Below, one piece after another: positions 1-44,146 of a stretch of 44,146 bases of DNA. The stretch lies in the IMG/VR virus record IMGVR_UViG_2698536573_000002. One strand, 5' to 3'. The DNA comes from a virus. Its lineage: Duplodnaviria; Heunggongvirae; Uroviricota; Caudoviricetes. The translations under genes and the position numbers were made by a program. Numbering within the stretch: position 1 is the stretch's first letter; every line of letters begins with the position of its first letter. Below the pieces are notes generated by a model. That model had not been told where the DNA came from. It was given only the letters and a program-made list of their open reading frames with translations, and searched no databases.

Positions 1-695
1 GCGTCCTGTGCGGTGTATTTAGCGTTAGCCAGGTCATATGCTGCCTTAACAGCCTTAGGCGTCGCAGCAAGCGTTTCAGACGTGCTATTGGTGGCGCTGC
101 TAAGTTGAACAAAGCCTTTTGAGGTTAAAGTTGCATCAGGATGATTACGTGATTGCTCATGTTTCACAATGGCTTGCTTAAGCCGCTTTGCTGAAACAGC
201 AAGGGAATCATCTGTACCTGCATCAATTTCTTGTTCATTAGCAAATCTTGCAACCCCAACAACAGTTTCGGTCGCGGGAGGATTAATAAACTCAATATCA
301 CCAAATATAATATTTTTAGTATCAAGAGTCTTGATTGCTATGTCACTTGATATTAAAGCAATAGTAGATGATGCTTTATTTATTATTGCTTGTTCTTGCG
401 AGTATACAGCAAACAACGTTCCCTTATTTGTATACAATCCTATTGTATGGACAACATACTCATCTTTACTATCATCCTTCGCCGTTACATGAATTGTATC
501 AGGGGAAACAACTTTGCCACCTATTGTGGTAAGTCGTTTTATTTCGTTTGTTATATTTGTTTGTGAGGTTGACGTGACATAATATCTACCACCTAAACCA
601 ACAGAAACAATCTCAACTTTATTTGTTCCTGTTTTGTTGGCATTAACCAACTCCTGACGCCCGGCGTCAGTCATCGTAAATAATAATTTACTCAC
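1..695 (-). CDS. tail fibre protein, N-terminal constant part (partial; gene runs off window start)
   Basis: Minus-strand frame open from window edge to GTG at 693-695 with AGGA 7 nt upstream; translation ends ...HEQSRNHPDATLTSKGFVQLSSATNSTSETLAATPKAVKAAYDLANAKYTAQDA, which I recognise as the conserved N-terminal domain of P2 gpH-type fibres. Confidence 0.75.
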   Translation of the reverse strand, partial: MSKLLFTMTDAGRQELVNANKTGTNKVEIVSVGLGGRYYVTSTSQTNITNEIKRLTTIGGKVVSPDTIHVTAKDDSKDEYVVHTIGLYTNKGTLFAVYSQEQAIINKASSTIALISSDIAIKTLDTKNIIFGDIEFINPPATETVVGVARFANEQEIDAGTDDSLAVSAKRLKQAIVKHEQSRNHPDATLTSKGFVQLSSATNSTSETLAATPKAVKAAYDLANAKYTAQD

Positions 696-725
696 GCTTA
701 ATTCCTTGAATAAACAAATTGCGAA

Positions 726-1307
726 TTAACACTCGCCAATTAATCGTATATAAGACACAGGCTGACAAGCACCAACAATACCGACACCACCAGAAACATT
801 GGCTGCTTGCGAAAATGTAAATAATGTTCTTGCCGACTTTGCGCTCTTGATACTTCTTAACGTATCTTCCAACATCTCTTTCGAAGGAACGGCACCATCA
901 AAAGAGTTAATCGAAGCAACAATTGAGGCTGTATATGGTTCGCCAGGTGGTGATGTTTCAAACCATTCTATTATGTTTACCTCTCCCCCCAAGCTATTTA
1001 CTACATCTTCAACCGCTGCCCTTGTACCCTTTATTCGCTTTGTTCGTATTATTGATTTGAAAACAGAACGCTTTAACGATACAGGCCAACTATCCCTCCA
1101 TGTATCAGCATTCCATTGCCAAGCTAAATGATCGAGGACAACTGAATCCAGGTTATCAACAACGCTATATATTTCTGTCTTATATATTAAATTGTTAATT
1201 GCTTGTAGTTCATCATCGATAGCTTTCGACATAGCTATCACGTTGGGATCGCTAGCTAAGTTAGGAGGTAAAACATCCAACAAGCTAACATTAAAGATAT
1301 CAGCCAT
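726..1307 (-). CDS. tail/baseplate protein, P2 gpI-like
   Basis: 193 aa ORF directly upstream of fibre and downstream of baseplate J, overlapping J stop; position and size fit gpI. Confidence 0.55.
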   Translation of the reverse strand: MADIFNVSLLDVLPPNLASDPNVIAMSKAIDDELQAINNLIYKTEIYSVVDNLDSVVLDHLAWQWNADTWRDSWPVSLKRSVFKSIIRTKRIKGTRAAVEDVVNSLGGEVNIIEWFETSPPGEPYTASIVASINSFDGAVPSKEMLEDTLRSIKSAKSARTLFTFSQAANVSGGVGIVGACQPVSYIRLIGEC

Positions 1308-2424
1308 CCTCTAACCCCGCATACTGGCAATTTATATTTCTCTCTCTGGCGACCTGTGTCTCTCCAACCACAGTAAAAACAGGACTTGATATTTCTAATC
1401 TTTTAGCCCCAGCATTTTTTAAACGTTGAATAATTTCATCTGGATTTATATCTCTTCCCATAACCGAACGTTGCCATTGTTTATACTCATCAATAGCTTT
1501 CTCAACCTCACTTTGAATTAAAGTTGTTCTGTTTTTGTCCGATGAGTTAATCCAGTATTTAATTATTATATCGTATTCAATGCTCTCTGGTTTCTTAACA
1601 AGAACTTTATCTGTGAATGGTCGAATATTAGTTGCAGAGAGAACGCTATTTATCTGCTCTAATAGTTCATCAGAAGGTATATCTCCGTTCTCTAACAAAG
1701 AACGGATTTCTACAATTCCGGGCGATGGTGTATATACATTCACATCTTTTATATTCTGATTGGCTGTTCTTGTCCAATATTTATAAGAATCCTCCGGCCC
1801 TGCTGTAGACAGTTTTTCCGGCGACAGTTTTATTCTTTCAGCATAATTATCATCTGACTCCGTATCAGCACCAGAATTAGATGTTGTTACATTCCTTACG
1901 CTGGAAACATACGGCAACGGAGTCACCAACTCATTTATTTGCCCTGGTAAAAAGCCATTCCCAGATAAACCAGGTATAACAGCATATCCTGAGACTGTAC
2001 CAACTGTTTTCCCAGCAGGTATTTCCAACAAAATATCTGTTTGGAAAATAACACCATTTCCAGTTGAAACTTGAGTGCCAGCAGGTATTGTATATATCCC
2101 CGATAATTTTGTTGACAGATTAAACTCAAATGTAGTCAAGGCAGATTGAGCTTCCAGCCTAGGCGTATCCGTCAGATAGCCTATATGGTCGAGATATTCA
2201 CCTTCACCATATGTAAGAAGGTTTTGTTTTGCAGAAAAATCGATAGCTTTTCTTTGCTGTATAATAATCTCACACAATGATAAGATGAATAATCTACGTG
2301 GATCAGCAGGTGCTAATGTTTCACCTGTTATACTCTCAAAAGCCCTGATTGAACGAGTTGTTATATCAGTCGGGTTAGAATCTGCGAAAGTAATATCTGG
2401 CAAACCACCACGCGGCAACGTCAT
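1300..2424 (-). CDS. baseplate assembly protein J
   Basis: 374 aa; order W-J-I-fibre typical of P2-like baseplate; overlapping stops/starts indicate operon. Confidence 0.7.
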   Translation of the reverse strand: MTLPRGGLPDITFADSNPTDITTRSIRAFESITGETLAPADPRRLFILSLCEIIIQQRKAIDFSAKQNLLTYGEGEYLDHIGYLTDTPRLEAQSALTTFEFNLSTKLSGIYTIPAGTQVSTGNGVIFQTDILLEIPAGKTVGTVSGYAVIPGLSGNGFLPGQINELVTPLPYVSSVRNVTTSNSGADTESDDNYAERIKLSPEKLSTAGPEDSYKYWTRTANQNIKDVNVYTPSPGIVEIRSLLENGDIPSDELLEQINSVLSATNIRPFTDKVLVKKPESIEYDIIIKYWINSSDKNRTTLIQSEVEKAIDEYKQWQRSVMGRDINPDEIIQRLKNAGAKRLEISSPVFTVVGETQVARERNINCQYAGLEDG

Positions 2425-2741
2425 TCTCTAACTCCTATCACAAGTTTTGGCCTAATAAAACCATCAGAAACGTCCGTTCTTTCAAAAGTAACAGAATGGA
2501 TAATCGCTCTAGGCTCAAACTCACTAATTTTTTGAATTATTTCTCGTGTTGCTGTAGCAATAAAAATTGGACTGGGGCTATCAACAAGACTTGAATTAAC
2601 TCCTAATTTTCTGGCATATGGTACAGTGCCAATCTGAGTGTTAATAATAGTAGAGACATTTTGCAAAACTTCTTCTACAACTGTTTTGGGCGACCAATCA
2701 ATCGAGTAAGAAGGTGATAATATGGTAAACGTATTATTCAT
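2421..2741 (-). CDS. baseplate wedge protein W (gp25-like)
   Basis: 106 aa, position between spike and J. Confidence 0.65.
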   Translation of the reverse strand: MNNTFTILSPSYSIDWSPKTVVEEVLQNVSTIINTQIGTVPYARKLGVNSSLVDSPSPIFIATATREIIQKISEFEPRAIIHSVTFERTDVSDGFIRPKLVIGVRE

Positions 2742-3205
2742 AATAATTTACCTAACGCACTTCTAGTTTTTGACTCTATATTGCCAGCAATATCAACTAA
2801 TGCTTCTTTCAGAGAGGTCTGTCCGACTTCCTGTAATTTAATGCCGACGATAATCACTCGCGGATTCCCAGTTGGACCGAAATAAGTCCATGATTCCTCT
2901 ATATCTGTAATTATAAAATTACCAAAATACTGAATACCAATTACAACAGGATTTACTTCCTGAATTGATTGCATCGTCCTAAGTAATGAAAGCGCAGCCA
3001 ATGGAACAATGCCAAGTGTTGTATCCAACCGCATATTAAAACTAACTTCATCCAGATCTGGACCTATATCCTCCAGAACAGGTTTAAGCCCAATAACATC
3101 ATGGCGCGCTACACGACGCTTTGACGTCCTTTTAAAATTGTTGAACGTATTCACTACTATTGATGAGGCAACAAAAGGCATTGTACCAAGCATACCCACA
3201 ATCAT
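2738..3205 (-). CDS. hypothetical tail/baseplate-associated protein
   Basis: 155 aa ORF coupled between V-like and W-like genes; no family recognised. Confidence 0.3.
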   Translation of the reverse strand: MIVGMLGTMPFVASSIVVNTFNNFKRTSKRRVARHDVIGLKPVLEDIGPDLDEVSFNMRLDTTLGIVPLAALSLLRTMQSIQEVNPVVIGIQYFGNFIITDIEESWTYFGPTGNPRVIIVGIKLQEVGQTSLKEALVDIAGNIESKTRSALGKLL

Positions 3206-3822
3206 GCCTGAGCCTCCGTTGTCGGAGCGTATTCCCCCTGAGCTGTGTGATGGTGGCCTTTAGATTTAATCCCATCAACATCTATATCACCACCAACAAC
3301 CTTAACATTCCCAGAAATTGTAGCTGCAACACCTCCAGCAGAAGATCCTTTCATTCCACCTTTGAAGGTTAGTAATCCTTCAACTGTAGCATTTCCGGTA
3401 ATGATGGTTTCTGGAGCATCAATAGTTACGGTTCCTGTAGCCTTAACGGTTACATCTCCGACAGCATCAACAAGGAGTAAATTAGATTCTCTGTCTATCT
3501 CAATACGAGTTCCGTTATTAAATCTAATTACGCGTTTATTAACAGTATTAGATGGCGGCTTCTGTGTTTCATCATAAAAACTACCAAGAATAAAACCTTG
3601 TTGCGGCCCTGCGGGATGAAAGATACACAAAACTTGCTCACCAATATCTGGCATCCAGTAATCAGCATTCTTATCTGTATTTTTCACAATAACTGATAAC
3701 TTTGCCGAAGTGACGTTATCCTGATCATCGAAAGTAACTCTTGCTGTAACATCACCATCATCAATATCAGAAACAACGCCAACTCTTATAGTCTGACGTA
3801 ATAATGTTTCTAAATCATTCAT
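3202..3822 (-). CDS. baseplate spike/assembly protein V
   Basis: 206 aa; gpV-like layout with C-terminal GNVKVVGGDIDVDG repeat-like segment and His-rich tip (GHHHT). Confidence 0.65.
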   Translation of the reverse strand: MNDLETLLRQTIRVGVVSDIDDGDVTARVTFDDQDNVTSAKLSVIVKNTDKNADYWMPDIGEQVLCIFHPAGPQQGFILGSFYDETQKPPSNTVNKRVIRFNNGTRIEIDRESNLLLVDAVGDVTVKATGTVTIDAPETIITGNATVEGLLTFKGGMKGSSAGGVAATISGNVKVVGGDIDVDGIKSKGHHHTAQGEYAPTTEAQA

Positions 3823-3824
3823 AA

Positions 3825-4826
3825 TTAATACCCATTAATTACTCTTCGGACATCAATCGAGGTGGTATAACCACTAGCCCCAATTGAATGCACAGCTTTC
3901 GATATAAGATATTTTCCAGAAAATGAACCGAATCCGTCCAGATTTATAGTTACACCAGCTACCAATCTGGTGTCTCCAACCAAAACTAAAGATCCGGTAT
4001 TTTGATATCTATTTTTAAGCCGCAAAGCAGCCTTTGCCTTACGTTTTGCTTCATCTAAATTAGCTACCAGTTTTCTTATCTTAAGATTCGCCCCTTCTTC
4101 TACGGATGGATCTACCCAAGTATACGAAAGCGACTTTCTTTTTTTAGGTACGCGATATTTGCACGTGCAACTTTTATACAAATCTGTAGATTGTGTGCTA
4201 AAGCTATATCTGATTATCTCATCAATACCTAACGTAAGCGTAGCGATAGGATCTTTTTGCTCAAACATCTCTTGAGCAAATATTATTAATTGGCTATCAG
4301 TGACCTTTAACGACACCCCTTCATCCTGGCAAAGTCGATGGAGAAATTTTAAATCGCTTTCCTCCATTTGATCTTCACGCGCATAATATGGATTACTATC
4401 ACCATCAATAAGAAACAACAGTTCAAGGTTAGCTAATTTAGCTATAGAAGTCGCTATATCTTTAAGAGTTGTTTTTTCCCATGCATTACTTTTTAAATCA
4501 CGTCTAATGCCTGATGAAACAGGAACAGAAACAGCAGTCACCTCAACAACAGAAGGTGGTCCAGAGCAAGTTATGCCATCCACCTGGAATTTCCCACACT
4601 CAAGGACGATTTGATTTATAGGCTTAAAGCTCAAATCAATAAAATCACCCTTTTTAGGTGTCCAGTCTCCAGACCATTTCCCATCATCATTTTTTAATAT
4701 AATGGAAATATCATCGACCTGACCATCTTCATTATCTGTATAAGACATTGACAAAACATCAGGTGACATATGAGCGGTAATATTTACATTCTGATATACA
4801 ACATCAAAAAGCGTTTTACGTAACAC
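3825..4826 (-). CDS. tail protein D (late control D family)
   Basis: 333 aa ORF immediately downstream of tape measure and X-like gene, as in P2 T-U-D order. Confidence 0.55.
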   Translation of the reverse strand: MLRKTLFDVVYQNVNITAHMSPDVLSMSYTDNEDGQVDDISIILKNDDGKWSGDWTPKKGDFIDLSFKPINQIVLECGKFQVDGITCSGPPSVVEVTAVSVPVSSGIRRDLKSNAWEKTTLKDIATSIAKLANLELLFLIDGDSNPYYAREDQMEESDLKFLHRLCQDEGVSLKVTDSQLIIFAQEMFEQKDPIATLTLGIDEIIRYSFSTQSTDLYKSCTCKYRVPKKRKSLSYTWVDPSVEEGANLKIRKLVANLDEAKRKAKAALRLKNRYQNTGSLVLVGDTRLVAGVTINLDGFGSFSGKYLISKAVHSIGASGYTTSIDVRRVINGY

Positions 4827-5034
4827 TATTGCGTCTCCACGGAGGCAAATTATTTACTGATATTGGCATAACCGGAGCATCAGGAACTTTAAGAATAATT
4901 CCCGCAGAAAAAAGCACCGTAAAGCGGTGCTCAGTATTAGCATCAATAAGAAGATAAGACAGGTACTCATTACCATACAACTTTAACGCGATACTATCCC
5001 ATGAGTCCCCTTGAACCGTTCTATAATCATCCAA
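4816..5034 (-). CDS. tail protein X-like (LysM-like small tail protein)
   Basis: 72 aa, overlaps tape measure stop; small LysM-like tail protein pattern. Confidence 0.45.
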   Translation of the reverse strand: MDDYRTVQGDSWDSIALKLYGNEYLSYLLIDANTEHRFTVLFSAGIILKVPDAPVMPISVNNLPPWRRNSVT

Positions 5035-7819
5035 AACTTAATCTCCGTTGTTGGAACATATGAGCACTCAATTTCTTCTCAAAATCAGAATATCCCGCAT
5101 CTAATGCTCTTTTAGCTGCCGCCTCAGTTTCCTTTGGTGAACCAGCCGGAAGATTGATTACAGGTGAATAGGTTATTCCACCAGTCACAGCGTTAACGTT
5201 CTGGCGAGGTCCAGAAGTCCCGGCGGCAGATATCCCGTGAGGTGATAAATTTGATTGCCCGAACTTGGTTGCTATTGCATTCTGTAAGCTGTTATTCCTG
5301 CTAACACCTGATGCCAGAGTAGTCATTATTGCACCACCTGACTTTGTTAGCTGTGAGAATGGACCTTTTTTCGCGTCAGAGAACGGTAAATACTCACGTA
5401 CAGAAGAAAAAACGCCTTTCACTTCATTAATTAAAGCATTTGCTTTTGATTTTATCCCAGTGATTAACGTCTCAATTATTTTTGCACCTGACTCACTCCA
5501 GTTTATTCCAGATAAATAAGCCGTTACAGATTGGAATGCTCTTATAAAGAGTCCAACTGGTGAAAAACGCATAAAAACAGATACCAGTGTATCTATGATT
5601 TTCTTTCCTGTTTCGCTCCAGTTAACACCAGAAAGATAATTTTTTACATATTTAAACGCTTTAATTAATAACGGAAGCGGAGACATCCATTTAAAAGCAC
5701 TAATTAATGTACTGTAAATCTTTACTCCTGCCGAACTCCAGTTTATATTGGAAAGATAATCCCATGCTTTACCAAACATGGATATAATCCATCCATTGAG
5801 ATCAAAGTTTAAGATAAAGTTTTTTATAGTCTCAAAAGACTTAACAGTGTAATCCTTAATAGCAGGCCAAACTTTTGATGCACATTCTTTTATTTTATCC
5901 CAATTCTGATACAACAATATACCTAACGCCACAATGGCTGATATGGCCATCTGAATCCACCCGAAAGGGGTTAGCTTTGTCGCTACAGATAAAGCCAGCA
6001 TAGCTACCCTACACGCTATAACCACACTTTTCATGGTTAGAAACGCACCTGCCGCCATCACAATCTGAGAAACAAAATTGGGGTTGTTAGCTACAAATTC
6101 ACTGATTTTTGTAATCAGCGGAACCAAAACACTAAGCGCGGCATTTAAAGCAGGTTGCAAGGCCTGACCAAAACTTAATGATGCATTGCTAGCCTGAATA
6201 CGTAATTGTTTCAATCGCTCCGCATTATCTTTCGTTATGTTGGCAAAATCGCGGTCAATAACAGCACTTCCAGCTCCAAGAGATGTTGCTTTGATTCTCT
6301 GGTATTCCTTCCAGTTTTGAATCATCGGACGAACAAAGTTCTGAACCTGCATATCGCCAAATAGCTCACCAAGTAACTTCTGATCTCCGTTCTTAGTCAT
6401 TTTCATGACAGAATGCATTGCAGCTTCGAATGGATTCTTCCCTTTTTTCTGCGCTGTTGTGACAATTTTATATAAATCTACACCGAAATTTTTCTTTGCT
6501 TTTTTTAGTGTTTCAGGGGAAAGTATTTTCGCCAAAAAGTTGTTCATATTATTAGCAGCCTCATCCGAAGTTGCAGCACCTTTGCGAGCTATCTGCAAAG
6601 CTGCCCCCATCGTCGCGGCGGCTTCTTTACCTCCCATTTTTAATGCCTGGAACTGAGCACCAAGCACAGGAAGATTTTTGGCCATATCTTTAAATTCAAA
6701 GTTTCCCTCTTTCCCTGCCTGAACCAGAATCCCCATTGCAGACTTCATTTGAGATGGATCAATCTTCAATGAGTCACTTAATGTAAATGATGCTTTCGAG
6801 ACATCGAGGATATCAGAGCCAGTAGCTGTAGCTGTTCGCCCAATAGTTAGTAGATTCGCCTGAGCCTCTTTATAATCCTGCCCAGCAGCGACAAGAAAAC
6901 CCTGAGCGGCCTGAATATCAGATGCAAACTGGTTGGTGGCCGTTCCGGTAACAAGCATCGCCTGCCCCATCGCCTGAACTTCTTCCGGCTTCATATCTGC
7001 CGTAAGACCAATCATTTTGTTTTCACGATTGAAATTTGCTGCATTGTTAGCAGCAGCAAATGCACCAGCCGCTACAGCACCAGTTTGTAATCCTGACCTT
7101 ACAAGTTGACTCTTTGCCTCACCAAGATGCTCTCGCTTCAATTCACGCTGCCTTTCCAACGCGCGGTTTAACTCCTCCTGAGCACGTTTTACTGCAAGAA
7201 CATTTTTCCGTGCTTCAGCCAACGCATTTTTATAGCTGTTAATTTTATCAATACGTTGTTTTTCTAATGCCCGGTTAAGTTCCTCCTGCTGTTTTTTCAC
7301 TTGCTGAACATTTGCTCTGGCTAAAGCCAAAGCCGTTCTGTAGCGGTTAACCTGCTCAACGCTACGGGCCTGAGCCTCACGATTACGATCAATGCTGGCT
7401 TTAAGCTCTTTCTCTCTTGAGGCCAAAGCTCTGGCAGATGTATCAGCTCCCTGATAGGCAGACTTTAAAGCGGCCAGTTCTTCACGCTGAGAACGTAGTG
7501 ATGCTCGTAAATTCGATGAATGTGTTTTTGCCTTCTCAAAGTCACGAAGCATCGCTCTGGTTGGATTGGCCGTGTTTTTTATTTGCTTCTGTAACTCTTC
7601 AACGCGAGCGGCAGCTTTATGATATTCGAGGGCAGTCTGTCCAACCTTTACTTTTACAGATTGTAGCTTTTGAATTTCCCCATGTTCTTTCGTTAATCCA
7701 GCAAGCTCGGCATTTAATTTAGCAACAGCCTGATTAGCTGTAGTAAAACTTTTGGGGAGAGAGGCGGCAACTTTGCCGCCAATTTCAAAAGCCAGCTTAA
7801 AGTTCTTATTGCTGGCCAT
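5027..7819 (-). CDS. tail tape measure protein
   Basis: 930 aa; long coiled-coil N-terminal half with KAQ/ELNRALE repeats, hydrophobic central segment, located after tail chaperone. Confidence 0.85.
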   Translation of the reverse strand: MASNKNFKLAFEIGGKVAASLPKSFTTANQAVAKLNAELAGLTKEHGEIQKLQSVKVKVGQTALEYHKAAARVEELQKQIKNTANPTRAMLRDFEKAKTHSSNLRASLRSQREELAALKSAYQGADTSARALASREKELKASIDRNREAQARSVEQVNRYRTALALARANVQQVKKQQEELNRALEKQRIDKINSYKNALAEARKNVLAVKRAQEELNRALERQRELKREHLGEAKSQLVRSGLQTGAVAAGAFAAANNAANFNRENKMIGLTADMKPEEVQAMGQAMLVTGTATNQFASDIQAAQGFLVAAGQDYKEAQANLLTIGRTATATGSDILDVSKASFTLSDSLKIDPSQMKSAMGILVQAGKEGNFEFKDMAKNLPVLGAQFQALKMGGKEAAATMGAALQIARKGAATSDEAANNMNNFLAKILSPETLKKAKKNFGVDLYKIVTTAQKKGKNPFEAAMHSVMKMTKNGDQKLLGELFGDMQVQNFVRPMIQNWKEYQRIKATSLGAGSAVIDRDFANITKDNAERLKQLRIQASNASLSFGQALQPALNAALSVLVPLITKISEFVANNPNFVSQIVMAAGAFLTMKSVVIACRVAMLALSVATKLTPFGWIQMAISAIVALGILLYQNWDKIKECASKVWPAIKDYTVKSFETIKNFILNFDLNGWIISMFGKAWDYLSNINWSSAGVKIYSTLISAFKWMSPLPLLIKAFKYVKNYLSGVNWSETGKKIIDTLVSVFMRFSPVGLFIRAFQSVTAYLSGINWSESGAKIIETLITGIKSKANALINEVKGVFSSVREYLPFSDAKKGPFSQLTKSGGAIMTTLASGVSRNNSLQNAIATKFGQSNLSPHGISAAGTSGPRQNVNAVTGGITYSPVINLPAGSPKETEAAAKRALDAGYSDFEKKLSAHMFQQRRLSFG

Positions 7820-7824
7820 TAGTA

Positions 7825-8007
7825 TTAATCCTCATTAAACACGTCAATCCATGCGACGATTCGCCTCAACCGAAGCGAAAGCCAGTAGGATATAGGTGTT
7901 GATTGAGATGATTGAGATAGAGAACTCGCGGCCCTCATTATTTGCTTATCAATAGGTTTTTGCTCATCAAAACCTACGAGAGCAAAAAATTCTGTACCTT
8001 TTGACAA
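7825..8007 (-). other. -1 frame extension of tail chaperone; slippery heptamer T_TTT_TTG at 7989-7983 (minus strand)
   Basis: Zero frame reads ...Q N F L L S stop; -1 frame continues ...E F F A L V G F D E Q... to 7825; heptamer fits X_XXY_YYZ. Confidence 0.5.
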
Positions 8008-8255
8008 ACTTTAACAAAGTCTTTCGCTGGTAATCCATTCAGATACTCTATTGGACGACCAATACAGCGAGCAGCCAAGGCTGCATGGACTTTATTATCA
8101 AGTGATGTTTGAACTGAAACATGCCCTTGAGATTGCAGTAAGTCCGATACCTCTAAAATATCACTGCCTTTTAGGTTGTCTAAATCAAGGTTGAGTTCAG
8201 TCACCGGCTCAAAGTCTTCAAAACGATATTCTTTACTTAATTTAACGGTTTCCAT
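7974..8255 (-). CDS. tail assembly chaperone (short form)
   Basis: 93 aa ORF between tube and tape measure; overlapped by -1 frame ORF 7825-8007. Confidence 0.6.
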   Translation of the reverse strand: METVKLSKEYRFEDFEPVTELNLDLDNLKGSDILEVSDLLQSQGHVSVQTSLDNKVHAALAARCIGRPIEYLNGLPAKDFVKVCQKVQNFLLS

Positions 8256-8264
8256 TTTGTCACC

Positions 8265-8786
8265 TTATAAACCTAAATCATCACGAACGCTTTTTAATAT
8301 ATCTTCACCATCAAAGATACAAATAAAGTTCAACTTATCAATTTCCAGGACTTCTTTCCCATCAATAAATAATTTGATATAGAGAACTTCAAATTCATTC
8401 TCTGAATCAGTAGCCTTTGCCACCTGTAGCGAACCTAAATCCAGTTTTTTAGGATTTAGCTTCATTGAAGCCCGAATAGGAACCGTTTTATATTTTCCTG
8501 TTCCTGCATCATAAACCTGCTGGCTACCGCGAAAATCTACCTGATGCGATGAGGATAGAAATAATTTTGTACCAGCAGAGGTCAGAGTTCGCCATTTAAG
8601 AGAGACAGTCATTGGTTTGAAATGCCCCAGCGTTCCGCTCTCAAGCTCTCCAGCGATACCTGCACCACTAACAGTTTCTGTCATCATCTCAATTGATGGC
8701 AGCTTTGCGTCAGCAACACCGATAATACGGTTTCCCTCACCGTATACTGTAAAGTTAATAAGTCTCTCAGGAATTTGATTGCTCAA
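8265..8786 (-). CDS. tail tube protein
   Basis: 173 aa directly downstream of sheath gene. Confidence 0.7.
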   Translation of the reverse strand: MSNQIPERLINFTVYGEGNRIIGVADAKLPSIEMMTETVSGAGIAGELESGTLGHFKPMTVSLKWRTLTSAGTKLFLSSSHQVDFRGSQQVYDAGTGKYKTVPIRASMKLNPKKLDLGSLQVAKATDSENEFEVLYIKLFIDGKEVLEIDKLNFICIFDGEDILKSVRDDLGL

Positions 8787-8802
8787 AGCAACCTCCTATT
8801 AT

Positions 8803-12819: not shown

Positions 12820-12839
12820 AAAAATACGACCTCTTTATA

Positions 12840-33796: not shown

Positions 33797-33820
33797 CTGC
33801 AAGCGGGCTAACGCCCGCTT

Positions 33821-33930
33821 ATATGATTATAGATTTATATAATTATATAAAACACTTTTCATCCGCCAAAAAGTTGGTTATGCTTACCTCATTCTATAAA
33901 TATAGATTTATAGAATTATATAATCAAACA
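33821..33930. repeat. clustered AT-rich palindromic motifs upstream of parA (candidate centromere/operator)
   Basis: tatgattatagatttatataattatataa and tataaatatagatttatagaattatataa; same core as in the three promoter repeats. Confidence 0.5.
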
Positions 33931-33946
33931 CATGGAGTCTCGACAA

Positions 33947-34600: not shown

Positions 34601-34643
34601 TATATAATTATAGTTTTATAGATTTATATAAGAGAGGATACAC

Positions 34644-34892
34644 ATGGCCGCACCATCAAAACCACCAAAGAAGAACAGCAAAGGCGTACCGCCATCGATC
34701 GAACAACCGCAGGTTTTCGACCCGACTGAAACGCCAGCCAGAACCAAATCAGGTGGGGCACAAATGGCGTTTAACGTCGACCCTGAATTTAAACGCGAGT
34801 ACAAAACGTTCGCCAGCTCAATGGATATGTCATTGAAAGAAGTGCTAACAAAATCTTTTGAGTTACTCAAGGCTCAATACAACCAGAAGTAA
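34644..34892 (+). CDS. ParG-like ribbon-helix-helix partition protein
   Basis: 82 aa, unstructured basic N-terminus then RHH-like MAFNVDPEFKREYKTFASSMDMSLKEVL; RBS GAGAGGA. Confidence 0.55.
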   Translation: MAAPSKPPKKNSKGVPPSIEQPQVFDPTETPARTKSGGAQMAFNVDPEFKREYKTFASSMDMSLKEVLTKSFELLKAQYNQK

Positions 34893-35112: not shown

Positions 35113-35136
35113 ATAAAAAAGGCCCCCGAAGGGGCC
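35113..35136 (-). terminator. intrinsic terminator (minus-strand orientation)
   Basis: ggcccc-cgaa-ggggcc hairpin followed by U6 on minus strand, directly after small ORF 35143-35265. Confidence 0.5.
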
Positions 35137-35142
35137 TAATCG

Positions 35143-35265
35143 CTACTTGCTGCTAATGTTTATCGTCACATTCAGAGCGTTATCAGTAATCTTCCAACCC
35201 TCTCCATGTGGCGTAAACAAAGCCCCAGTAACAACGATAAAAATACACATGTAGTATTTTTTCAT
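35143..35265 (-). CDS. small hydrophobic peptide (40 aa)
   Basis: MKKYYMCIFIVVTGALFTPHGEGWKITDNALNVTINISSK; RBS AAGGG; own terminator. Confidence 0.35.
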   Translation of the reverse strand: MKKYYMCIFIVVTGALFTPHGEGWKITDNALNVTINISSK

Positions 35266-35655
35266 TGTGTGGCCCTTACAGGCCGTTTCACGGCATCCCC
35301 ACCGACGAAAATGACGCGAGAGCAAGCACGCTGTTTGTGCCTGCGTGGTACGGCAAGTGGATAATCCTTTCCTGAAAGTCAGTGCCCGGGTGCGAATCGG
35401 CGGAAAGGCCCCAAGCCATATTACACGTCATACCCTTCATAATGAAGGAATAAAAAACGCTTTTATTACATGAGATTACACGTAAATAAGTTAAAAACCT
35501 TCATTTTGCATGAGCTAATGAGCTAAATTTTTTTATATGAATAGTGGACTATTCACCTCAGTTAGGTAAGAATGTAGTTGCTGTTTGTGCTTGCGTGGTT
35601 GTATTAGTACAACGACGTTATGCTGAAAGGACCGCGAATCCGATCAGCACGAAAG

Positions 35656-36419: not shown

Positions 36420-36521
36420 AATGCGCCATTGGTGGACACTTTCCGAGCCGTAGCAAAATCTACGGTCGGGATTGGAACCCCGATAATCATCATGGCGCAT
36501 ACCGCGTTAGCGGTTTTTTTA
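36420..36521 (+). ncRNA. candidate small regulatory RNA (c4-like) upstream of antirepressor operon
   Basis: TTGACA at 36412-36417; terminator accgc-gtta-gcggt + T7 at 36501-36520; short elements complementary to leader near 36603-36634. Confidence 0.3.
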
Positions 36522-36685
36522 TGCGTAAAGCACTGCTACACCCAAATTATGGTGGGGCGTGCGGGGGAGTCGTAAGACTCGCCGGATTCCATGGTGACCG
36601 GTAGTTCCAACCCTGTACGTCTCACCACCCAATGATTGGAACCAGACGGTGGTGAGTATCCTTAACCTTTAAGGGAACTATCACC

Positions 36686-36877
36686 ATGACAAACCTACCC
36701 CATGACTATTACGTCAACCTCGTAAAGATCCTTCTCAAGAAAGCCTCATACGCCGATAAATTCCGCCTGGCTGAAATCATCGAGCGCGAAGCTATGCGCA
36801 TCGCCAGCAACGATAACGCTGTTTCTGTCGCAAAAATCTCCCTCGTAACCAAAGTAGTTATGGGAGGTGCAAAATGA
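36686..36877 (+). CDS. small leader protein translationally coupled to antirepressor (icd-like position)
   Basis: 63 aa; stop TGA overlaps ant ATG (ATGA); RBS AAGGGA. Confidence 0.45.
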   Translation: MTNLPHDYYVNLVKILLKKASYADKFRLAEIIEREAMRIASNDNAVSVAKISLVTKVVMGGAK

Positions 36878-38055
36878 AAACGCTTCCGACCGTTAACACC
36901 CTACAGCCTATCCTGCATAACCAGCTCCCCGTTATCACTACTGAACTACTGGCGCAATTGTATGGAACCGAGCGCCAACGTCTGACAAACAATTTCAATA
37001 GAAACAAGGAACGTTTTATAGAAGGTAAACACTTTTTTAGGATAGAAGGTAAAGAGTTACGAGAGTTGAAGAACAAAAACTCTTTAAGAGTTCCTGTGAG
37101 AGTAGTTAACGAACCATCTTTAAGAGGGTTACAAATTCCCCCGAAAGTTCGCTCCCTCATCCTCTGGACAGAACGCGGGGCTGCACGTCACGCCAAAATG
37201 CTTGAAACTAACCAAGCGTGGGATGTGTTCGAACGGCTGGAAGACAGCTACTTCAACCAGAACGCACAAACGGCCGCGACCGTAACCGTCTCACCAAACA
37301 ATGCTCGTGAGGTTGTCGATACGCTCAACGCCAAACCAATGTATTACGTTAAGGTGTGCAACAACGAGCCACTCACAACCTCAGCCGATGTAGCCCAGGC
37401 ATTCAGCACCACAAACAATTCCATCGTTATGGCCATCGATGCATTACGCATTCCTCGCACAGCTGCGGCACGTCATTTCTTTAAAGAGCAACGACCGCTG
37501 GAAGGAAGCGACCGCGAAATAACAATCTATCGCATGACAAAAGACGGATTTACCTTGCTCATGGAAAGTATCGACGGTCCAGGCGTGAAGGATATCAAGC
37601 TGGCCTACATTGAAGCCTTTAACGCTATCAGCAGCGTGTTAAAGGCAGAATACGAGCGAATGCTATACAACCGACTGTATCAGGAAACAAAGATTATCCG
37701 AACGGCAACAGAACATCATCGGCTATTAACGGAACCAAACTACCGCAAGACACTAATCAAAGAGTTTGACAAGGCGACGGAGAAAACTAAAGCGGCACTA
37801 AATCTACCAACAATGACTAAAGATGATGTGATATCAGCCTTACTTCTTGATCTGCTCAGAAACGTCAGAGCACTTATCAGTTTTGACGAAAACCTGAATC
37901 CTCAGCTCAAGCTACTACCACCGACAGGCAAAGTAGTCGACCAAGCAGATCACAACAGCATACTCAGCGTACTGGATGCAAACCTGCCAGCCAGGACACT
38001 ACAGGAGCTGATAAAAATATCTGCGGATAAACTGGCCGCAGGTGCAAAACCATAA
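36874..38055 (+). CDS. antirepressor (ORF6N/KilA-N-like N-terminal domain plus Rha-like domain)
   Basis: 393 aa; N-terminal LPVITTELLAQLYGTERQRLTNNFNRNKERF and central MYYVKV...TIYRMTKDGFTLLM blocks. Confidence 0.6.
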   Translation: MKTLPTVNTLQPILHNQLPVITTELLAQLYGTERQRLTNNFNRNKERFIEGKHFFRIEGKELRELKNKNSLRVPVRVVNEPSLRGLQIPPKVRSLILWTERGAARHAKMLETNQAWDVFERLEDSYFNQNAQTAATVTVSPNNAREVVDTLNAKPMYYVKVCNNEPLTTSADVAQAFSTTNNSIVMAIDALRIPRTAAARHFFKEQRPLEGSDREITIYRMTKDGFTLLMESIDGPGVKDIKLAYIEAFNAISSVLKAEYERMLYNRLYQETKIIRTATEHHRLLTEPNYRKTLIKEFDKATEKTKAALNLPTMTKDDVISALLLDLLRNVRALISFDENLNPQLKLLPPTGKVVDQADHNSILSVLDANLPARTLQELIKISADKLAAGAKP

Positions 38056-38057
38056 AA

Positions 38058-38090
38058 CAAAGCGCCCGATTTGGGCGCTTCTTCAATTCT
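38058..38090. terminator. bidirectional intrinsic terminator between convergent genes
   Basis: agcgccc-gattt-gggcgct flanked by T-rich tracts on both strands. Confidence 0.5.
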
Positions 38091-38725
38091 TAATATTTCG
38101 GTGTAATCAGTAGCGATACATGCCCTGATTTGTCACGAGAAACGTAATACTCGCCTCTCTTAGTCTTGAACTCAGCTTTCTGCATATCTGATTTAACAAT
38201 CTGCTCTAACTGCGCAATCACGGTGTCTCTTTCACTTGACGCATCCAAGACTTCAACTGCTACGGCCATAGAAAGCAAGGAATCAGAGTTAGGCTTGGAT
38301 ACTCGCCATAATAACTCAGAAATCTTCCCATCCTTATCAACTCTAGCCCGACCGTTAACAGATGAGTTGATGGCAAATTCAACGGTGTTATTACCTTGTT
38401 TAACAGACTTAATTCTTATAGTGGAGGTGGCTTTTCCTGATGTAGCGATGCCTTCAAGGTCATCATTATATAACTGCTTAAACTTATCTACGGTCACACC
38501 ATCAAAAGCAGCTCCGGTAGTAGCCGCAGTGTTGGAGTCTTCTGGGATCAAGGTCACAGCCGCAAGAGTATTAACAACTACAAAAGTAGCAATCCCGAGA
38601 AAGCCACTCACTAAAACAGCTTTGAACTTACCACCAGAAGACGAGGCACATTGTTTCCGATATGCGCCACGAACTACGAAGAAACACAAAATCAGGCTAA
38701 TAATAAACGCCACCAGCATCCCCAT
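38090..38725 (-). CDS. membrane protein with two N-terminal TM helices
   Basis: 211 aa; hydrophobic segments then soluble domain; RBS AAGGAG. Confidence 0.45.
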   Translation of the reverse strand: MGMLVAFIISLILCFFVVRGAYRKQCASSSGGKFKAVLVSGFLGIATFVVVNTLAAVTLIPEDSNTAATTGAAFDGVTVDKFKQLYNDDLEGIATSGKATSTIRIKSVKQGNNTVEFAINSSVNGRARVDKDGKISELLWRVSKPNSDSLLSMAVAVEVLDASSERDTVIAQLEQIVKSDMQKAEFKTKRGEYYVSRDKSGHVSLLITPKY

Positions 38726-39290
38726 AGAAATCTCCTTTTAGATATAAGGGTAAAGCAATATCGTATTAGATCTTCCTTAAGACACAACCCCCCCTCCCCC
38801 CATACAGGGTGCCCTTTACCGGAGTTCCGGCCCCTTCTCAAAAGCATCAAAAAAAGCTCGAGATCGAGTACCGGAACTCATGCCACCAGATAGCTCCACA
38901 TCGTTTCCAATGCTTCGCCGCCGTGTGCGCCCTGTGGCCCACAATCATGCCATTGGTCGTCTGATATACCTTCTTCTGCTCATTGAGCACAGGCGAGTTG
39001 TCGCACTCCTGCCTTTCTCAGACTCGACTTAGTTTAGATCGCTGTTCCTGGCTTGCGTCAGCACACTTTCCCCTTGTACGCATACCCGCGCGCCACTTCG
39101 CCCAAAAACACCGAACCCAACGAAGTAGCAAAGACAACGACGCGAGCGTGAGTCTGAAACGTGCACCAGTAAAAAAGGGGTTGCAGGCGCAAAAAGATTT
39201 GATTATCTTTAGACGCAAGAAAGCCGCCCCAATCAAGAGGTGTCTTTTTAAATCCAGCCTACCAAGCAAGATTTAAATTTCAGACTGAAA

Positions 39291-40240: not shown

Positions 40241-40540
40241 TCAGATGTTAAACGCTATTCGTTTTCCTGTGGGAAGCTCAACATCCAGGCTTAATTTGCC
40301 TCCCATAGCTTCAACGTAACGCTTTAATGTCGCCAGCTTTAAATCATTTCCGCGCTGCTCCAGCTTTGTTACTGCTGGCTGGCTTATACCCATCGCCTCA
40401 GCAACCTGCTTTTGTGATAACTGGAGTTCTTCACGCATCATCTGCAAGCCGACCTCAAGAATCATCTCATCTGCCATTTCTTTAATTCGCGCCTGGCTTT
40501 CCGGTGAACGGCTGGCAATCACCTCATCTAATGTTCTCAT
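40241..40540 (-). CDS. HTH antitoxin (HigA-like)
   Basis: 99 aa; LQLSQKQVAEAMGISQPAVTKLEQ and C-terminal LATLKRYVEAMGGKLSLDV. Confidence 0.55.
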   Translation of the reverse strand: MRTLDEVIASRSPESQARIKEMADEMILEVGLQMMREELQLSQKQVAEAMGISQPAVTKLEQRGNDLKLATLKRYVEAMGGKLSLDVELPTGKRIAFNI

Positions 40541-40893
40541 TACTTGCTCTCCAGTGTGTTCAGATGTGCTGCAAACTCATCCTCAGCTATACGCACCAGT
40601 TTTTTATAAAACCGCTTATCGTTACTTTTGTCTCCTGCACAAAGAACGATAGCCCGGCGAATCGGATCGAACGCATAAAAGGCTCTTATCGGACGGCCAG
40701 AAAACTGAACGCGAAGCTCTTTCATATTTTTGTACCGAGAACCTTTTACGGTATCGGCATATGGCCTGGGTAACTCAGGTCCGTAAACCTGTAGCTTTTT
40801 CAAATCAGCCAAAACCTTTTCCTGAAGAGCGTCTTCTTGCTCATTTAGCCAGTCGTCAAATCGCTGGCTAAAAAGTACCGTCCACATGCTCAA
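40540..40893 (-). CDS. RelE/HigB-family toxin (Gp49-like)
   Basis: 117 aa; toxin-first order with overlapping stop/start; TVKGSRYKNMKELRVQFSGRPIRAFYAFDPIRRAIVL. Confidence 0.55.
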   Translation of the reverse strand: MSMWTVLFSQRFDDWLNEQEDALQEKVLADLKKLQVYGPELPRPYADTVKGSRYKNMKELRVQFSGRPIRAFYAFDPIRRAIVLCAGDKSNDKRFYKKLVRIAEDEFAAHLNTLESK

Positions 40894-41759: not shown

Positions 41760-42349
41760 AATAGAAATTTACTACATTGCGTATAAGACAAGTTTTCTAT
41801 GTCTAATAGAAAAGGATGTTTCTTACGTTTTGTCGCGTTCTGATTGCTACTGTGTGCGTATTTATCGACGTTTATTGATAAGGTCCGTCCCTTCCTCCTG
41901 CAAAGCCCGGCCGTAGGCCTTATTTCGGCCTTATATAAATTGATTTTGTATAGTTCGAAACGCGCCGTTTCGAAAAGGATGATCAGGCTGCTCCATGCCT
42001 CCGGCAAGTGCCGGAGGAGGTATATTTGAGCGTAGCGACTCGAACCGGCGCGAGCTTTAGCTCGCTGCAAGGGCGAACATATTCACAGGCAAAGCCTGCG
42101 TAAGTTAAATAAAGAAAGTCTTAATAAAAGAAAGTGATTTTGCATTTATTTGTTTAGTGCATCTATTATAAAAAACCATTTGCATATACATATCAAAACT
42201 GTGGATAACTTTATTATCCGATGCCTGTAAAGGCGATATTTTTGCTGTGTTCAGGTTTAGAGAAAATTAATTTAGACTATTTTTTGAACAGATATTTTAT
42301 TGCGACGTAGATAATCCTCCGGTAAAACCGGATTCATCATTCAGGTGGG
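41760..42349. other. putative plasmid replication origin region downstream of repA
   Basis: AT-rich; DnaA box TTATCCACA (revcomp of 42200-42208); palindromes ttcgaaacg-cgc-cgtttcgaa and cctccggca-ag-tgccggagg near 41950-42015. Confidence 0.45.
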
Positions 42350-43198
42350 TTAATGTTGGAGTGATTTCCAGGTCTTTCTTAGCCTGTTATAACGCTGCTC
42401 AACGAGGGATCGTAAATATGCAAGGTCAGCACCTGGATACATGCCATCAGCAAATTCCTGGCTAACCTCTCTAGTGATTTGATGACGAAGTTCGGCCTCT
42501 CCCTTTTCCCGGACAAGACGCGCAGCTCTCTCCGCTGCTTTCTGTTTTGCCTTTATCTCTCTGGCCGTCTTCCTCTGGCGCCATACATTCTCCATCTGCT
42601 CCTGAATAACAATACGCTTATAATCAGCCTCCGTTATCGCTTTTTTAAGCCGTTCGCTATTCTTCGCATTGAAGTAATTAAGTTTCTGGCTAACCGCACG
42701 TCTCCATGCTTGTTCAGTAATACCAACGGTTTCCAGCAGTTGATCACGAATCTCTATTTTCGCTGGCCAATACTGTTTATTCACCCGATCCCAGCGACGT
42801 TCATAATCAATAAAACCTAACGCTTTCAGTTGCGACAACGCCCTTGTACAGCGCGTTATAGACTTGTTCCCAGCTTCGGATACGGTAGACAGGCCGCAAA
42901 AATCAGCCAACGCCTCAGCACTAGCCAGAACCCGCTTAGAAATGATGTTTACATGGTGCAAAATCGCAGCGATCACAGCATTAATCGCCCGACGACGATG
43001 CTCGTTTATCCGGCGCTTCCGCTCTGACGGTTGATTAACGTAGAACGCAACCTCACACGTAAGATCACGCCCATTAATGCGCTGTAAAGCATCAGATAAC
43101 ACCAGCGGCAGCTTGTGCGTATGGTGCTTTGGAGGCTGGAACTCCGGCGACAAATTACAAACGTAAGCTGAACGTAGAGACGGCATTGGTCTATCCAT
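42350..43198 (-). CDS. repA: replication initiation protein, IncFII RepA1 family
   Basis: Contains KSITRCTRALSQLKALGFIDY block resembling R100/R1 RepA1 as I recall it; ORF open to 43327, internal ATG at 43198 gives ~283 aa; upstream part is leader targeted by antisense RNA. Confidence 0.7.
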   Translation of the reverse strand: MDRPMPSLRSAYVCNLSPEFQPPKHHTHKLPLVLSDALQRINGRDLTCEVAFYVNQPSERKRRINEHRRRAINAVIAAILHHVNIISKRVLASAEALADFCGLSTVSEAGNKSITRCTRALSQLKALGFIDYERRWDRVNKQYWPAKIEIRDQLLETVGITEQAWRRAVSQKLNYFNAKNSERLKKAITEADYKRIVIQEQMENVWRQRKTAREIKAKQKAAERAARLVREKGEAELRHQITREVSQEFADGMYPGADLAYLRSLVEQRYNRLRKTWKSLQH

Positions 43199-43242
43199 AT
43201 GTTCGCTCTTGCGTCCACGGAAAACCAACGTATAATGGGAGT

Positions 43243-43320
43243 TGTCGAGGCGCCCATGGTTAGTTGTTGGTTTTCCGTGGATGTCGCAAGAAGCCCGCAG
43301 ATTTATCTGCGGGCTTTTTG
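43243..43320 (+). ncRNA. antisense RNA to repA leader (CopA/RNAI-like)
   Basis: Plus-strand promoter TTGCGT-16bp-TATAAT (43209-43236); terminator gcccgcag-atttat-ctgcgggc + T-run at 43293-43323; fully within repA leader. Confidence 0.55.
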
Positions 43321-43362
43321 TTTCCATATCTGGTCACTTTCCAACCAGACACCCACAATCAT

Positions 43363-43379
43363 AACCACGTTACGTGGTT
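43363..43379. promoter_or_regulatory. ACCAC-N5-GTGGT palindrome in repA promoter region
   Basis: aaccacgttacgtggtt, perfect, ~36 bp upstream of repA leader ORF start. Confidence 0.5.
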
Positions 43380-43508
43380 TTGAGAGAACTCTACCACAAC
43401 ACTTTCGGTCATGCACGAAGTCTCTCACTGATCGAACGATAATCCACCAGTAAAAGGATCTAAATTGGATCTCGTTTTGCGAGCATCATACTACTGGCCT
43501 AACTCCAG

Positions 43509-44063
43509 TCAATGATTCCCAGCCGGAAACCTGCGGTAAAGCGTGGATAAAGTAACATCGAAGATAATCGCTATCCGCTTACGTGAAACACCATTCGCAA
43601 TAAGCCTTCCGATCTGTTCCCATTGCTCTGGTGACAGCTTTGAGCGGCGTCCTCCGATCCTGCCGTTAGCCCTTGCCACCGCCAATCCTGCACGCGTTCT
43701 TTCAATCATATTTTCCCGCTCCATCTCTGCGACTGCACTCAGCATCGTGTAGGCAAAGCGGCCAATTGAAGTGCTAATTTTTATCCCTTCCGTAATCGAA
43801 ATAAACTCAATGTTGTTTGATAAAAAATGGTTAAGTAAATCAACAAGATGAATCAGGGAACGCCCCATTCGGTCCAGCTTCCAGACAATAACCGTATCGC
43901 CCGGCCGTAACACCTTAAGTAGCTTATCAAGTCCTGGTCGTTTTGATTTAGCACCGGATATTTTATCTTCAAAAATCCGGTCACATCCTAAACTCCTGAG
44001 CGCCTCCAGTTGTAATTCCAAATTCTGGTCAAAAGTTGACACCCTCGCATAACCATATTGCAT
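43509..44063 (-). CDS. serine recombinase, DNA invertase (Gin/Cin/Pin/Hin family)
   Basis: 184 aa; GYARVSTFDQ catalytic Ser, VWKLDRMGRS, AEMERE, GRIGGR, C-terminal HTH LSTLYRR. Confidence 0.8.
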   Translation of the reverse strand: MQYGYARVSTFDQNLELQLEALRSLGCDRIFEDKISGAKSKRPGLDKLLKVLRPGDTVIVWKLDRMGRSLIHLVDLLNHFLSNNIEFISITEGIKISTSIGRFAYTMLSAVAEMERENMIERTRAGLAVARANGRIGGRRSKLSPEQWEQIGRLIANGVSRKRIAIIFDVTLSTLYRRFPAGNH

Positions 44064-44131
44064 ACTTTCTAAACCGCGATTGTTGCTAAAAGCGGGAAAA
44101 AATATCGTTCAGACGACACAGAGGCAATTCG

Positions 44132-44146
44132 CAAAAACCTCGGTTT
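44132..44146. other. gix/cix-like invertase crossover half-site at window edge
   Basis: caaaaacctcggttt; reverse complement AAACCGAGGTTTTT matches gix core as I recall it. Confidence 0.5.

Follow-up and report, generated by a model that had tools for sequence, protein, structure and literature searches.

P1 and P7 are prophages kept as plasmids. They combine RepA-type replication, a partition system and an addiction module with an immunity region, immI, that consists of a C4 RNA, a small open reading frame (ORF) and an antirepressor, and their Cin-type invertase flips fibre ends. Together with P1, the curated phage-plasmid types of this lifestyle category include D6, N15, the SSU5 supergroup (with pSLy3, pKpn, pMT1 and pCAV), AB and cp32. 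Here we analysed a stretch of 44,146 bp of viral DNA, IMG/VR record IMGVR_UViG_2698536573_000002 (hereafter the window), which has all of these P1/P7 traits and in which the replicon resembles that of the IncFII plasmids R1 and R100. An earlier note, made from the letters of the window alone, had read it as a phage-plasmid, and this reading was borne out by gene content, by circular relatives and by the lack of chromosomal copies of the replicon. We conclude that the window very probably represents about 92% of a circular, temperate phage of about 48 kb that is kept as a low-copy plasmid and belongs to a lineage widespread in E. coli.

The element nevertheless differs from P1 and P7 in several respects. 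DNA similarity was limited to short pieces, 2-3% of the query, and the matches to P7, SJ46 and RCS47 in the phage collection, equally short, fell at the invertase and Ea22 genes. The window element is half as large and combines a lambda-type head with a P2-type tail. Its RepA belongs to the IncFII/L-M family, whereas P1 RepA acts with iterons, and it has a small type Ib ParA in place of P1 ParA/ParB. Cre/lox and repL were not detected in it. Two further candidates were rejected: pSLy3 belongs to the SSU5 supergroup of about 100 kb and is unrelated, and the "pseudolysogenic" Yersinia phage vB_YpM_HQ103 has a 32-kb genome and belongs to a different family.

A complete phage gene set and a plasmid replicon on one molecule

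Nearly every gene of the window was on the minus strand, and the GC skew was negative throughout. Read from the right end to the left on the minus strand, the order began with a serine invertase, repA with its leader and an origin-like region, a toxin-antitoxin pair and a variable accessory stretch. It continued with the antirepressor operon and its two small RNAs, a second helix-turn-helix (HTH) regulator, a ryfA-like locus, the partition locus and a CI-like repressor facing a long early operon. The lysis cassette with a tRNA, methyltransferases, the packaging and head module, the contractile tail and baseplate, and the first 231 codons of a tail-fibre gene completed the window. Profile searches located every feature that the earlier note had named at the place it had given.

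The full virion and lysis set claimed in that note was recovered by Pfam and PHROG matches, and only the distal fibre and its chaperones, which are present in the relatives, were missing from the virion, packaging and lysis genes. RepA and ParA co-occurred with the head genes on the same records, which places the plasmid initiator, the partition genes and the virion genes on one molecule. Profile scans found no tyrosine integrase, O/P protein, helicase or primase among all ORFs of at least 250 aa in the window. The 184-aa invertase thus stays the sole recombinase, as had been noted, and the statement that O/P-like and primase/helicase replication genes were not seen also stands after these scans and the rejection of one primase label described below.

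Near-identical circular plasmids and phage deposits

To the structural half of the window (positions 1-22000), 62 PLSDB plasmids matched, and 45 of the 62 covered at least 80% of it. Among the matches listed, identity was 98.5-99.5% and the size was mostly about 47-50 kb, and mobility typing classed all PLSDB matches as non-mobilizable. Circular E. coli plasmids of about 47-50 kb matched about 95% of the window at 98-99.96% identity, and their genes stood in the same order. They included the ATCC 25922 plasmid NZ_CP009073.1 (48,488 bp), which, like pE500002_49, pECO-b75, pO145_122715_2 and pESBL3215, is the same element as the window and has the same RepA. These E. coli plasmids differed from the window in small mosaic segments (23235-23707, 26939-28206, 36958-37155 and 38037-38774), and the window lacks a 3.8-kb fibre segment. 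The four mosaic accessory slots, which were missing from the closest relatives fetched, include a 211-aa ORF (38090-38725, phrog_23465) of unknown function. In another ATCC 25922 record (NZ_CP032086.1, 94,204 bp) two to three places matched, which points either to a dimer of the 48.5-kb circle or to its duplication during assembly. Decaying plasmid-borne copies were also seen (NZ_CP173475.1, NZ_CP035831.1, NZ_CP024829.1 and NZ_CP172156.1), with IS1203 in the terminase gene or a length of only 31-39 kb.

The same sequence has been deposited as phages. The Yersinia phages vB_YpM_39/41/44 (OR545053-55, about 49 kb), for which Y. pestis EV76-CN is listed as host, covered 41,862 of the 44,146 window bases, mostly at 96-99% identity, with one 890-bp piece at 91.6%. 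These phages and the E. coli prophage contigs vB_EcoM-613R2 and vB_EcoM-473R2 were mostly 96-99% identical to the window over about 42 kb, including repA, parA, the higBA-like pair and the invertase; unlike the plasmids, they are filed as phages, and almost all of their genes are annotated as hypothetical. The authors of vB_EcoM-613R2 noted just a ParB gene and did not propose a plasmid prophage. Production of infectious particles by genomes nearly identical to the window is suggested indirectly by the Yersinia phage deposits with their named host.

Of 5,426 complete E. coli genomes, 71 carried the replicon (repA region), at 82 places, all of them on plasmids and none chromosomal, and the records of the family are circular. 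The head module was present in 72 of these genomes, at 81 places, 80 on plasmids and one chromosomal; the single chromosomal place lay outside the places listed. Because replicon and head module co-occur on the same records of about 48 kb (71 versus 72 genomes), both sets of modules, phage and plasmid, are passed on as a unit on a single extrachromosomal circle. The earlier note had named two ways in which it could be wrong, namely chromosomal flanks with att sites and an integrase, and repA/parA from a separate replicon joined by misassembly; neither was found. It had also proposed to look for joining ends and a circular molecule of about 45-50 kb, and in the closed circular relatives of about 47-50 kb the ends do join, through the fibre segment.

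Weighing of other explanations

One other explanation is a phage-derived cryptic plasmid, in which replicon and maintenance functions work but the ability of this copy to form infectious particles has been lost. Most of the database entries are labelled as plain plasmids, and the degraded relatives, with IS1203 in the terminase gene or as deletion derivatives of 31-39 kb, indicate that plasmid life can outlast phage function. However, the structural, packaging and lysis ORFs of the window were all full length and matched those of intact relatives, and genomes 97-99% identical over about 95% of the window have been deposited as phages with a named propagation host, so that we regard a cryptic plasmid as improbable. 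The window might also come from an integrated prophage, with integrase and att sites in the missing flanks or with some other route of integration, as it holds no junction of its own and its physical state in the sample was not directly seen. But neither of its ends is a border of the element: in circular relatives, which have no integrase, 3.8 kb of fibre genes link the two, and 0 of the 82 replicon places were chromosomal. The joint inheritance of both modules makes the integrated state very unlikely, and it likewise excludes misassembly of a prophage with a separate small plasmid, an idea to which we give hardly any credence. The G+C content does rise from about 0.39 at the tail end to about 0.48-0.50 in the early and plasmid half, which shows a mosaic origin, yet the same gene order recurred in dozens of independently closed circles and in relatives from Salmonella, Klebsiella and Citrobacter, and replicon and head module co-occurred one to one.

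Several points weigh against the phage-plasmid reading itself. The copy number, circularity and virion production of the window's own isolate rest on the relatives, and the infectious virion rests on the metadata of GenBank records; no paper on the Yersinia phage isolates was found within the searchable literature library. No dedicated lytic replication function was identified in the window. The antisense RNA, the binding of the partition site and the control by C4 are predictions, and family members exist that are degraded, one by IS1203 in the terminase gene and others as deletion forms of 31-39 kb. With these points taken into account, the phage-plasmid remains by far the most probable explanation.

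The replicon belongs to the IncFII/L-M family

The gene called an IncFII-like repA in the earlier note was confirmed at family level by PF02387 and RepA_IncFII_LM. The strict part of the label failed, however, as the incFII_RepA equivalog TIGR03474 reached 78.6 bits versus a cutoff of 446.9, and classical IncFII RepA proteins were only about 31-40% identical to it over part of the length. A tblastn search with RepA found 62 plasmids at 80% identity or more, all of the window's own family, and 55 PLSDB records had at least 99% protein identity. In the relatives from Salmonella, Klebsiella and Citrobacter (85-60% identity) RepA is always 277 aa long and starts at the equivalent of M48. This suggests that the 325-aa ORF is probably over-called, with the true start at 43186 (M48), which would give 277-278 aa, and that its first 47 codons are probably leader.

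A candidate countertranscript lies against this leader, and its predicted fold had a minimum free energy of -69.5 kcal/mol (z -9.4). In the Salmonella plasmid pAR-0407-1, about 76% identical there, the countertranscript stretch was almost invariant while its flanks had diverged; the few changes affect both arms of the long hairpin without abolishing its predicted fold (z -5.5). A weak promoter-like pair, TAGAGA-17 nt-TATGTT, spotted by eye and below the threshold of the promoter scan, precedes the candidate. No CopA-family RNA was matched in Rfam at the gathering score or at E<=10. The earlier claim of an antisense RNA at repA is therefore supported by a two-hairpin candidate conserved in the Salmonella relative, but not by a match to the CopA family. 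Taken together, good circumstantial evidence makes a copy-number countertranscript opposite the repA leader plausible.

The origin was predicted from its layout, which is that of the R1 origin: the sole perfect DnaA box of the window lies about 145 bp downstream of repA, beside an AT-rich stretch. Like R1 and R100, the element thus has a PF02387 RepA, a structured candidate countertranscript opposite the repA leader, and, downstream of repA, a predicted origin where a DnaA box lies next to an AT-rich region. It differs from them in lacking a CopA family match and in failing the strict incFII_RepA model, and CopB and tap were not identified in the window. In the proposed mechanism, RepA would fire the oriR-like origin just downstream of its own gene, and the countertranscript of about 110 nt across the leader would limit RepA synthesis and thereby set the copy number.

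Partition and addiction loci

The locus described as ParA/ParG-like in the earlier note does carry a ParA ATPase (33947-34600), but likeness to ParG was unproven. ParA is a small Walker-type ATPase of 217-222 aa without an N-terminal DNA-binding domain, matching Pfam CbiA, ParA and MipZ. Six AT-rich iteron copies, upstream of parA and between parA and the next gene, form a predicted centromere-like site; both features are those of type Ib loci. The 82-aa protein encoded next has close homologues only, and the 40 residues at its N-terminus are basic and proline-rich. The AlphaFold2 (AF2) monomer model had a disordered basic tail, followed by an extended segment and two helices, with a predicted local distance difference test score (pLDDT) of 71-87 in the C-terminal part. 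This part of the model is what a ribbon-helix-helix monomer might look like, and no sequence or fold match backs ParG: searches of Pfam, NCBIfam, PDB sequences and folds gave no match, and the ParG label was dropped as unsupported. We therefore describe the locus as a putative type Ib-like partition locus with an unclassified candidate centromere-binding protein. The three ParB-N/Srx-domain proteins encoded near the packaging genes are not the partition system.

As for addiction, the HigBA-like pair was verified by a PF05973 toxin followed by an HTH_3 antitoxin. The toxin gene stands ahead of the antitoxin gene, which is the HigBA order; the Prokaryotic Genome Annotation Pipeline (PGAP) names the toxin as RelE/ParE family. 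The ryfA-like RNA locus contains a small hydrophobic ORF with the sequence MKKYYMCIFIVVTGALFTPHGEGW... and is possibly a TimP-like type I toxin, that is, a second addiction module. According to the proposed model, the small ParA, its 82-aa DNA-binding partner and the AT-rich iterons would distribute the copies at cell division, and HigB/HigA, perhaps also the ryfA/TimP-like toxin, would kill plasmid-free cells.

Two layers of immunity and the early operon

The CI-like immunity region proposed earlier was supported by matches of the repressor to phrog_4 and phrog_6201, and the repressor gene is transcribed divergently from the early operon. Besides the repressor, a P1 immI-like module was found on this non-P1 phage, which the earlier note had not mentioned. 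In Rfam its isrK-like RNA scored 70.2 bits, above gathering, and its C4 antisense RNA scored 84.3 bits versus a gathering score of 45. The antirepressor (393 aa, with ORF6N and Phage_pRha domains) starts within the 63-aa ORF, overlapping its stop by 4 nt. Two single-stranded segments of C4, 36590-36597 (8 nt) and 36602-36608 (7 nt), are complementary to 36674-36688, which spans the ribosome-binding region and the ATG of the 63-aa ORF; further 7-nt complements flank C4. The module therefore combines a C4 RNA above gathering, a small ORF coupled to an antirepressor, and complementarity to the start region. We take this arrangement, C4, small ORF and antirepressor, to be the c4-icd-ant logic of P1/P7 immI.

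LexA boxes occurred in the window at chance level only and none lay in regulatory regions, so SOS control through LexA was rejected. The C-terminal domain of the CI-like repressor seemed, by eye, to be without a Ser/Lys dyad, which is a weak inference. Given these two observations, we think that induction may run through the antirepressor instead of through repressor cleavage. In the model that we propose, lysogeny would be held by the CI-like repressor facing the early operon and backed by the P1-type second immunity region, where C4 RNA would pair with the ribosome-binding site and start codon of the 63-aa ORF, which is translationally coupled to the ORF6N-Rha antirepressor.

Pfam matches in the early operon were RecA_dep_nuc, DUF1064, DUF3560 and Ead_Ea22, with further PHROG matches; PDB sequence searches with its first two proteins gave no match. 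The DUF3560 ORF (28906-30123, minus strand) encodes a true protein of 355 aa, whose model had a pLDDT of 91 and consisted mostly of long helices with small beta domains. The protein matched a PHROG labelled "primase". The label was rejected, as no PDB fold matched at E<=0.001 and no Pfam or NCBIfam primase domain was found; it is also undercut by homologues in conjugative elements that are often fused to ArdC_N. In Salmonella pAR-0407-1 (5876-6934) a DGQHR-domain gene stands beside DUF3560, and it has no counterpart in the window.

Contig ends and the invertible fibre segment

The fibre gene runs off the left edge without a stop, as had been noticed earlier, and its final stretch of about 119 nt belongs to the first copy of a 132-bp tandem repeat. 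In the ATCC 25922 plasmid, window position 1 corresponds to 8433 and position 44146 to 12250; in pE500002_49 the two positions are 33702 and 37527. All of the circle except 3,816-3,824 bp is thus contained in the window, whose ends join across that segment in the closed circular relatives. The missing segment comprises the remainder of the fibre gene, two fibre-assembly (chaperone) genes in opposite orientations and an alternative ORF for the fibre C-terminus.

In the ATCC 25922 plasmid the invertible region is bounded by 83-nt inverted repeats (arms 9189-9271 and 12180-12262, 93% complementary), inside which lie the crossover sites TTATCGAATACCTCGGTTTGCAGGAA and TTCGCAAAAACCTCGGTTTACAGGAA. 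These two sites resemble the gix/hix crossover sites of Mu and Salmonella. Two 26-bp inverted crossover sites thus bound the alternative fibre ends and chaperones in the relatives, and the window keeps 19 bp of the right site only. The invertase is of the Gin/Cin/Hin/Pin kind by its size of about 185 aa and its Resolvase and HTH_7 domains, and its gene is 89.7% identical at the nucleotide level to the pin region of phage SJ46. By flipping a segment of about 3 kb that carries alternative fibre tips and chaperones, it would change the host range.

The earlier suggestion that a circle had been cut in the invertible fibre segment was right for the right end, which lies in a crossover site. The left end, however, is inside the 132-bp x 3.5 tandem repeat (Phage_fiber_2 motif; Tandem Repeats Finder array 8324-8789 in the ATCC 25922 plasmid), in the constant part of the fibre gene, about 760 bp before the left inverted repeat and thus outside the segment. 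Both window ends are ordinary repeat-induced assembly breaks, and the 3.8 kb or so were lost in assembly because of the invertible repeat and the 132-bp tandem repeat in the fibre gene.

Virion, packaging and lysis genes

The coordinates of all features are collected in Table 1. The lambda-type head and P2/Mu-type tail described earlier were both recognised by Pfam and PHROG, with the tail being of P2 type. Tail matches in Pfam were Tail_P2_I, Baseplate_J, GPW_gp25, Phage_P2_GpU, Phage_base_V, Phage_GPD, Phage_tail_X, PhageMin_Tail, Phage_TAC_7 and Phage_tube; the sheath matched phrog_23 and the tube is of FII type. For the head, Pfam matches were Phage_cap_E, CLP_protease, Phage_portal_2 (the lambda-family portal), DUF6148, GpA_ATPase and GpA_nuclease, and PHROG added the head decoration and small terminase proteins.

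The ParB-N/Srx genes matched in PADLOC only a type II methyltransferase model (MTase_II), and the PADLOC scan of accessory ORFs gave nothing beyond orphan methyltransferases. A probable cos or packaging site lies in the intergenic stretch 19116-19672, flanked by ParB-N/Srx genes; the Yersinia phage records begin at window position 19529/19530 or thereabouts. In lytic growth, the lambda-type terminase would package DNA from a site in this intergenic region at 19.1-19.7 kb into lambda-type heads, which would be joined to P2-type contractile tails. The tRNA with anticodon CAT is named Met by ARAGORN and in the Yersinia phage record, and tRNA-Ile by PGAP for the same gene in pE500002_49.

Table 1 Features of the 44,146-bp window, from left to right
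Feature	Position	Strand	Evidence and content
Tail-fibre gene, N-terminal 231 aa, open to the left edge	1-695	-	Pfam Phage_tail_fib, Phage_fiber_2; translation without stop
P2-type contractile tail/baseplate	726-10266	-	gpI, J, W-like, U, V, D, X, tape measure, chaperone, tube, sheath
Four small head-tail connector/virion genes	10266-11775	-	PHROG virion structural and minor tail families
Lambda-type head/packaging module	11776-18534	-	Capsid E, decoration protein, ClpP-type protease, portal, DUF6148, gpA-type large terminase, small terminase
Three ParB-N/Srx-domain genes (one fused to a methyltransferase) and a 239-aa gene	18525-22405	-	Pfam ParB_N, Methyltransf_23
MT-A70 orphan DNA methyltransferase	23828-24415	-	Pfam MT-A70 E 3.4e-23; PADLOC MTase_II
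tRNA, anticodon CAT	24724-24799	-	ARAGORN; Rfam tRNA 65.8 bits
Lysis cassette: two holins, GH108 endolysin, 92-aa ORF	25093-26575	-	Pfam Phage_holin_8, Phage_holin_3_7, Glyco_hydro_108, PG_binding_3
Early operon	26906-32494	-	Two unknown genes, Ref nuclease, DUF1064, PA0613-like gene, DUF3560, Ea22-like and small variable genes
CI-like repressor, 220 aa	32667-33329	+	HTH_3; phrog_4 full length; phrog_6201 "CI-like repressor" in C-terminal half
Partition locus (putative)	33819-34892	+	AT-rich iterons 33819-33931 and 34600-34639; ParA 33947-34600; 82-aa ORF 34644-34892
ryfA-like RNA locus with small hydrophobic ORF	35115-35413	-	Rfam ryfA 134.7 bits vs gathering score 80
HTH regulator, 179 aa	35696-36235	-	Pfam HTH_31, HTH_3; divergent from antirepressor operon
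P1 immI-like module	36447-38055	+	isrK-like RNA 36447-36520; C4 RNA 36545-36632; 63-aa ORF 36686-36877; antirepressor 36874-38055
HigBA-like toxin-antitoxin pair	40241-40887	-	Toxin 40540-40887 (Gp49/PF05973 E 2.4e-23), then HTH_3 antitoxin 40241-40540
oriR-like region (predicted)	42090-42260	-	Perfect DnaA box TTATCCACA at 42200-42208 beside 22% G+C stretch
repA, IncFII/L-M family	42350-43327	-	Pfam IncFII_repA (PF02387) E 1.3e-43; NCBIfam RepA_IncFII_LM 231.5 bits vs cutoff 70
Candidate countertranscript against repA leader	43211-43325	+	20-bp hairpin, then terminator hairpin and U tract
Gin/Cin/Hin-type serine DNA invertase, 184 aa	43509-44063	-	Pfam Resolvase E 9.8e-45, HTH_7
Right crossover site, partial (19/26 bp)	44128-44146	+	Window stops here, ending ...TTCGCAAAAACCTCGGTTT; full site in ATCC 25922 plasmid is TTCGCAAAAACCTCGGTTTACAGGAA

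The lineage and its meaning

The sequence is abundantly present in public databases, where it is filed as plasmids and as phages, and it is a common element and not a discovery. The lineage itself seems undescribed in print. It is not P1-, D6-, N15- or SSU5-like. Neither the ten tyPPing types nor the four Enterobacteriaceae groups of the 2025 surveillance survey include it, and no paper naming the lineage of about 48 kb was found within the searchable literature library.

More distant relatives showed how the modules are put together outside E. coli. In the 46-kb K. aerogenes contig DAGIYJ010000036.1 (7077-10834), a P2-type tail, fibre and chaperone directly adjoin repA, with no invertase and no invertible segment. 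In Citrobacter freundii UFWO01000003.1 (2952-20834), where RepA is 60% identical to that of the window, the backbone is shared (RepA, toxin-antitoxin, Rha, ParA, CI, early operon), but its neighbours are a Tn3 fragment and a Mu-type baseplate with Gp45, Gp46 and Gp48, which suggests a swap of the tail module in this relative.

A broader reading with three parts, held jointly, is possible and we offer it only tentatively. The lineage of about 48 kb may be a distinct, unnamed group of Enterobacterales phage-plasmids, present in about 1.3% of complete E. coli genomes and related to elements of Salmonella, Klebsiella and Citrobacter. The genes for maintenance and immunity (RepA, toxin-antitoxin, antirepressor, ParA, CI, early operon) may form a conserved backbone that is combined with exchangeable tails, P2-type here and Mu-type in a Citrobacter relative. 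The plasmid replicon of RepA and antisense RNA, as the sole recognisable replication system, might then drive both maintenance and lytic amplification, unless unknown early proteins do the latter. If true, a conserved backbone with an exchangeable tail would be the reverse of the usual pattern of conserved phage genes and variable plasmid genes.

For the contig itself, the correct label is phage-plasmid, and not "cryptic plasmid" or "incomplete prophage", and the breaks at its ends arose during assembly from the invertible fibre segment and the tandem repeat. As a common lineage is absent from the tyPPing types and from the four-group survey, surveys of E. coli phage-plasmids may undercount. 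The element is a small model for the question of how DNA is amplified by a phage without recognisable lytic replication genes, and for studying a P1-type C4/antirepressor switch on a lambda/P2-type virion chassis.

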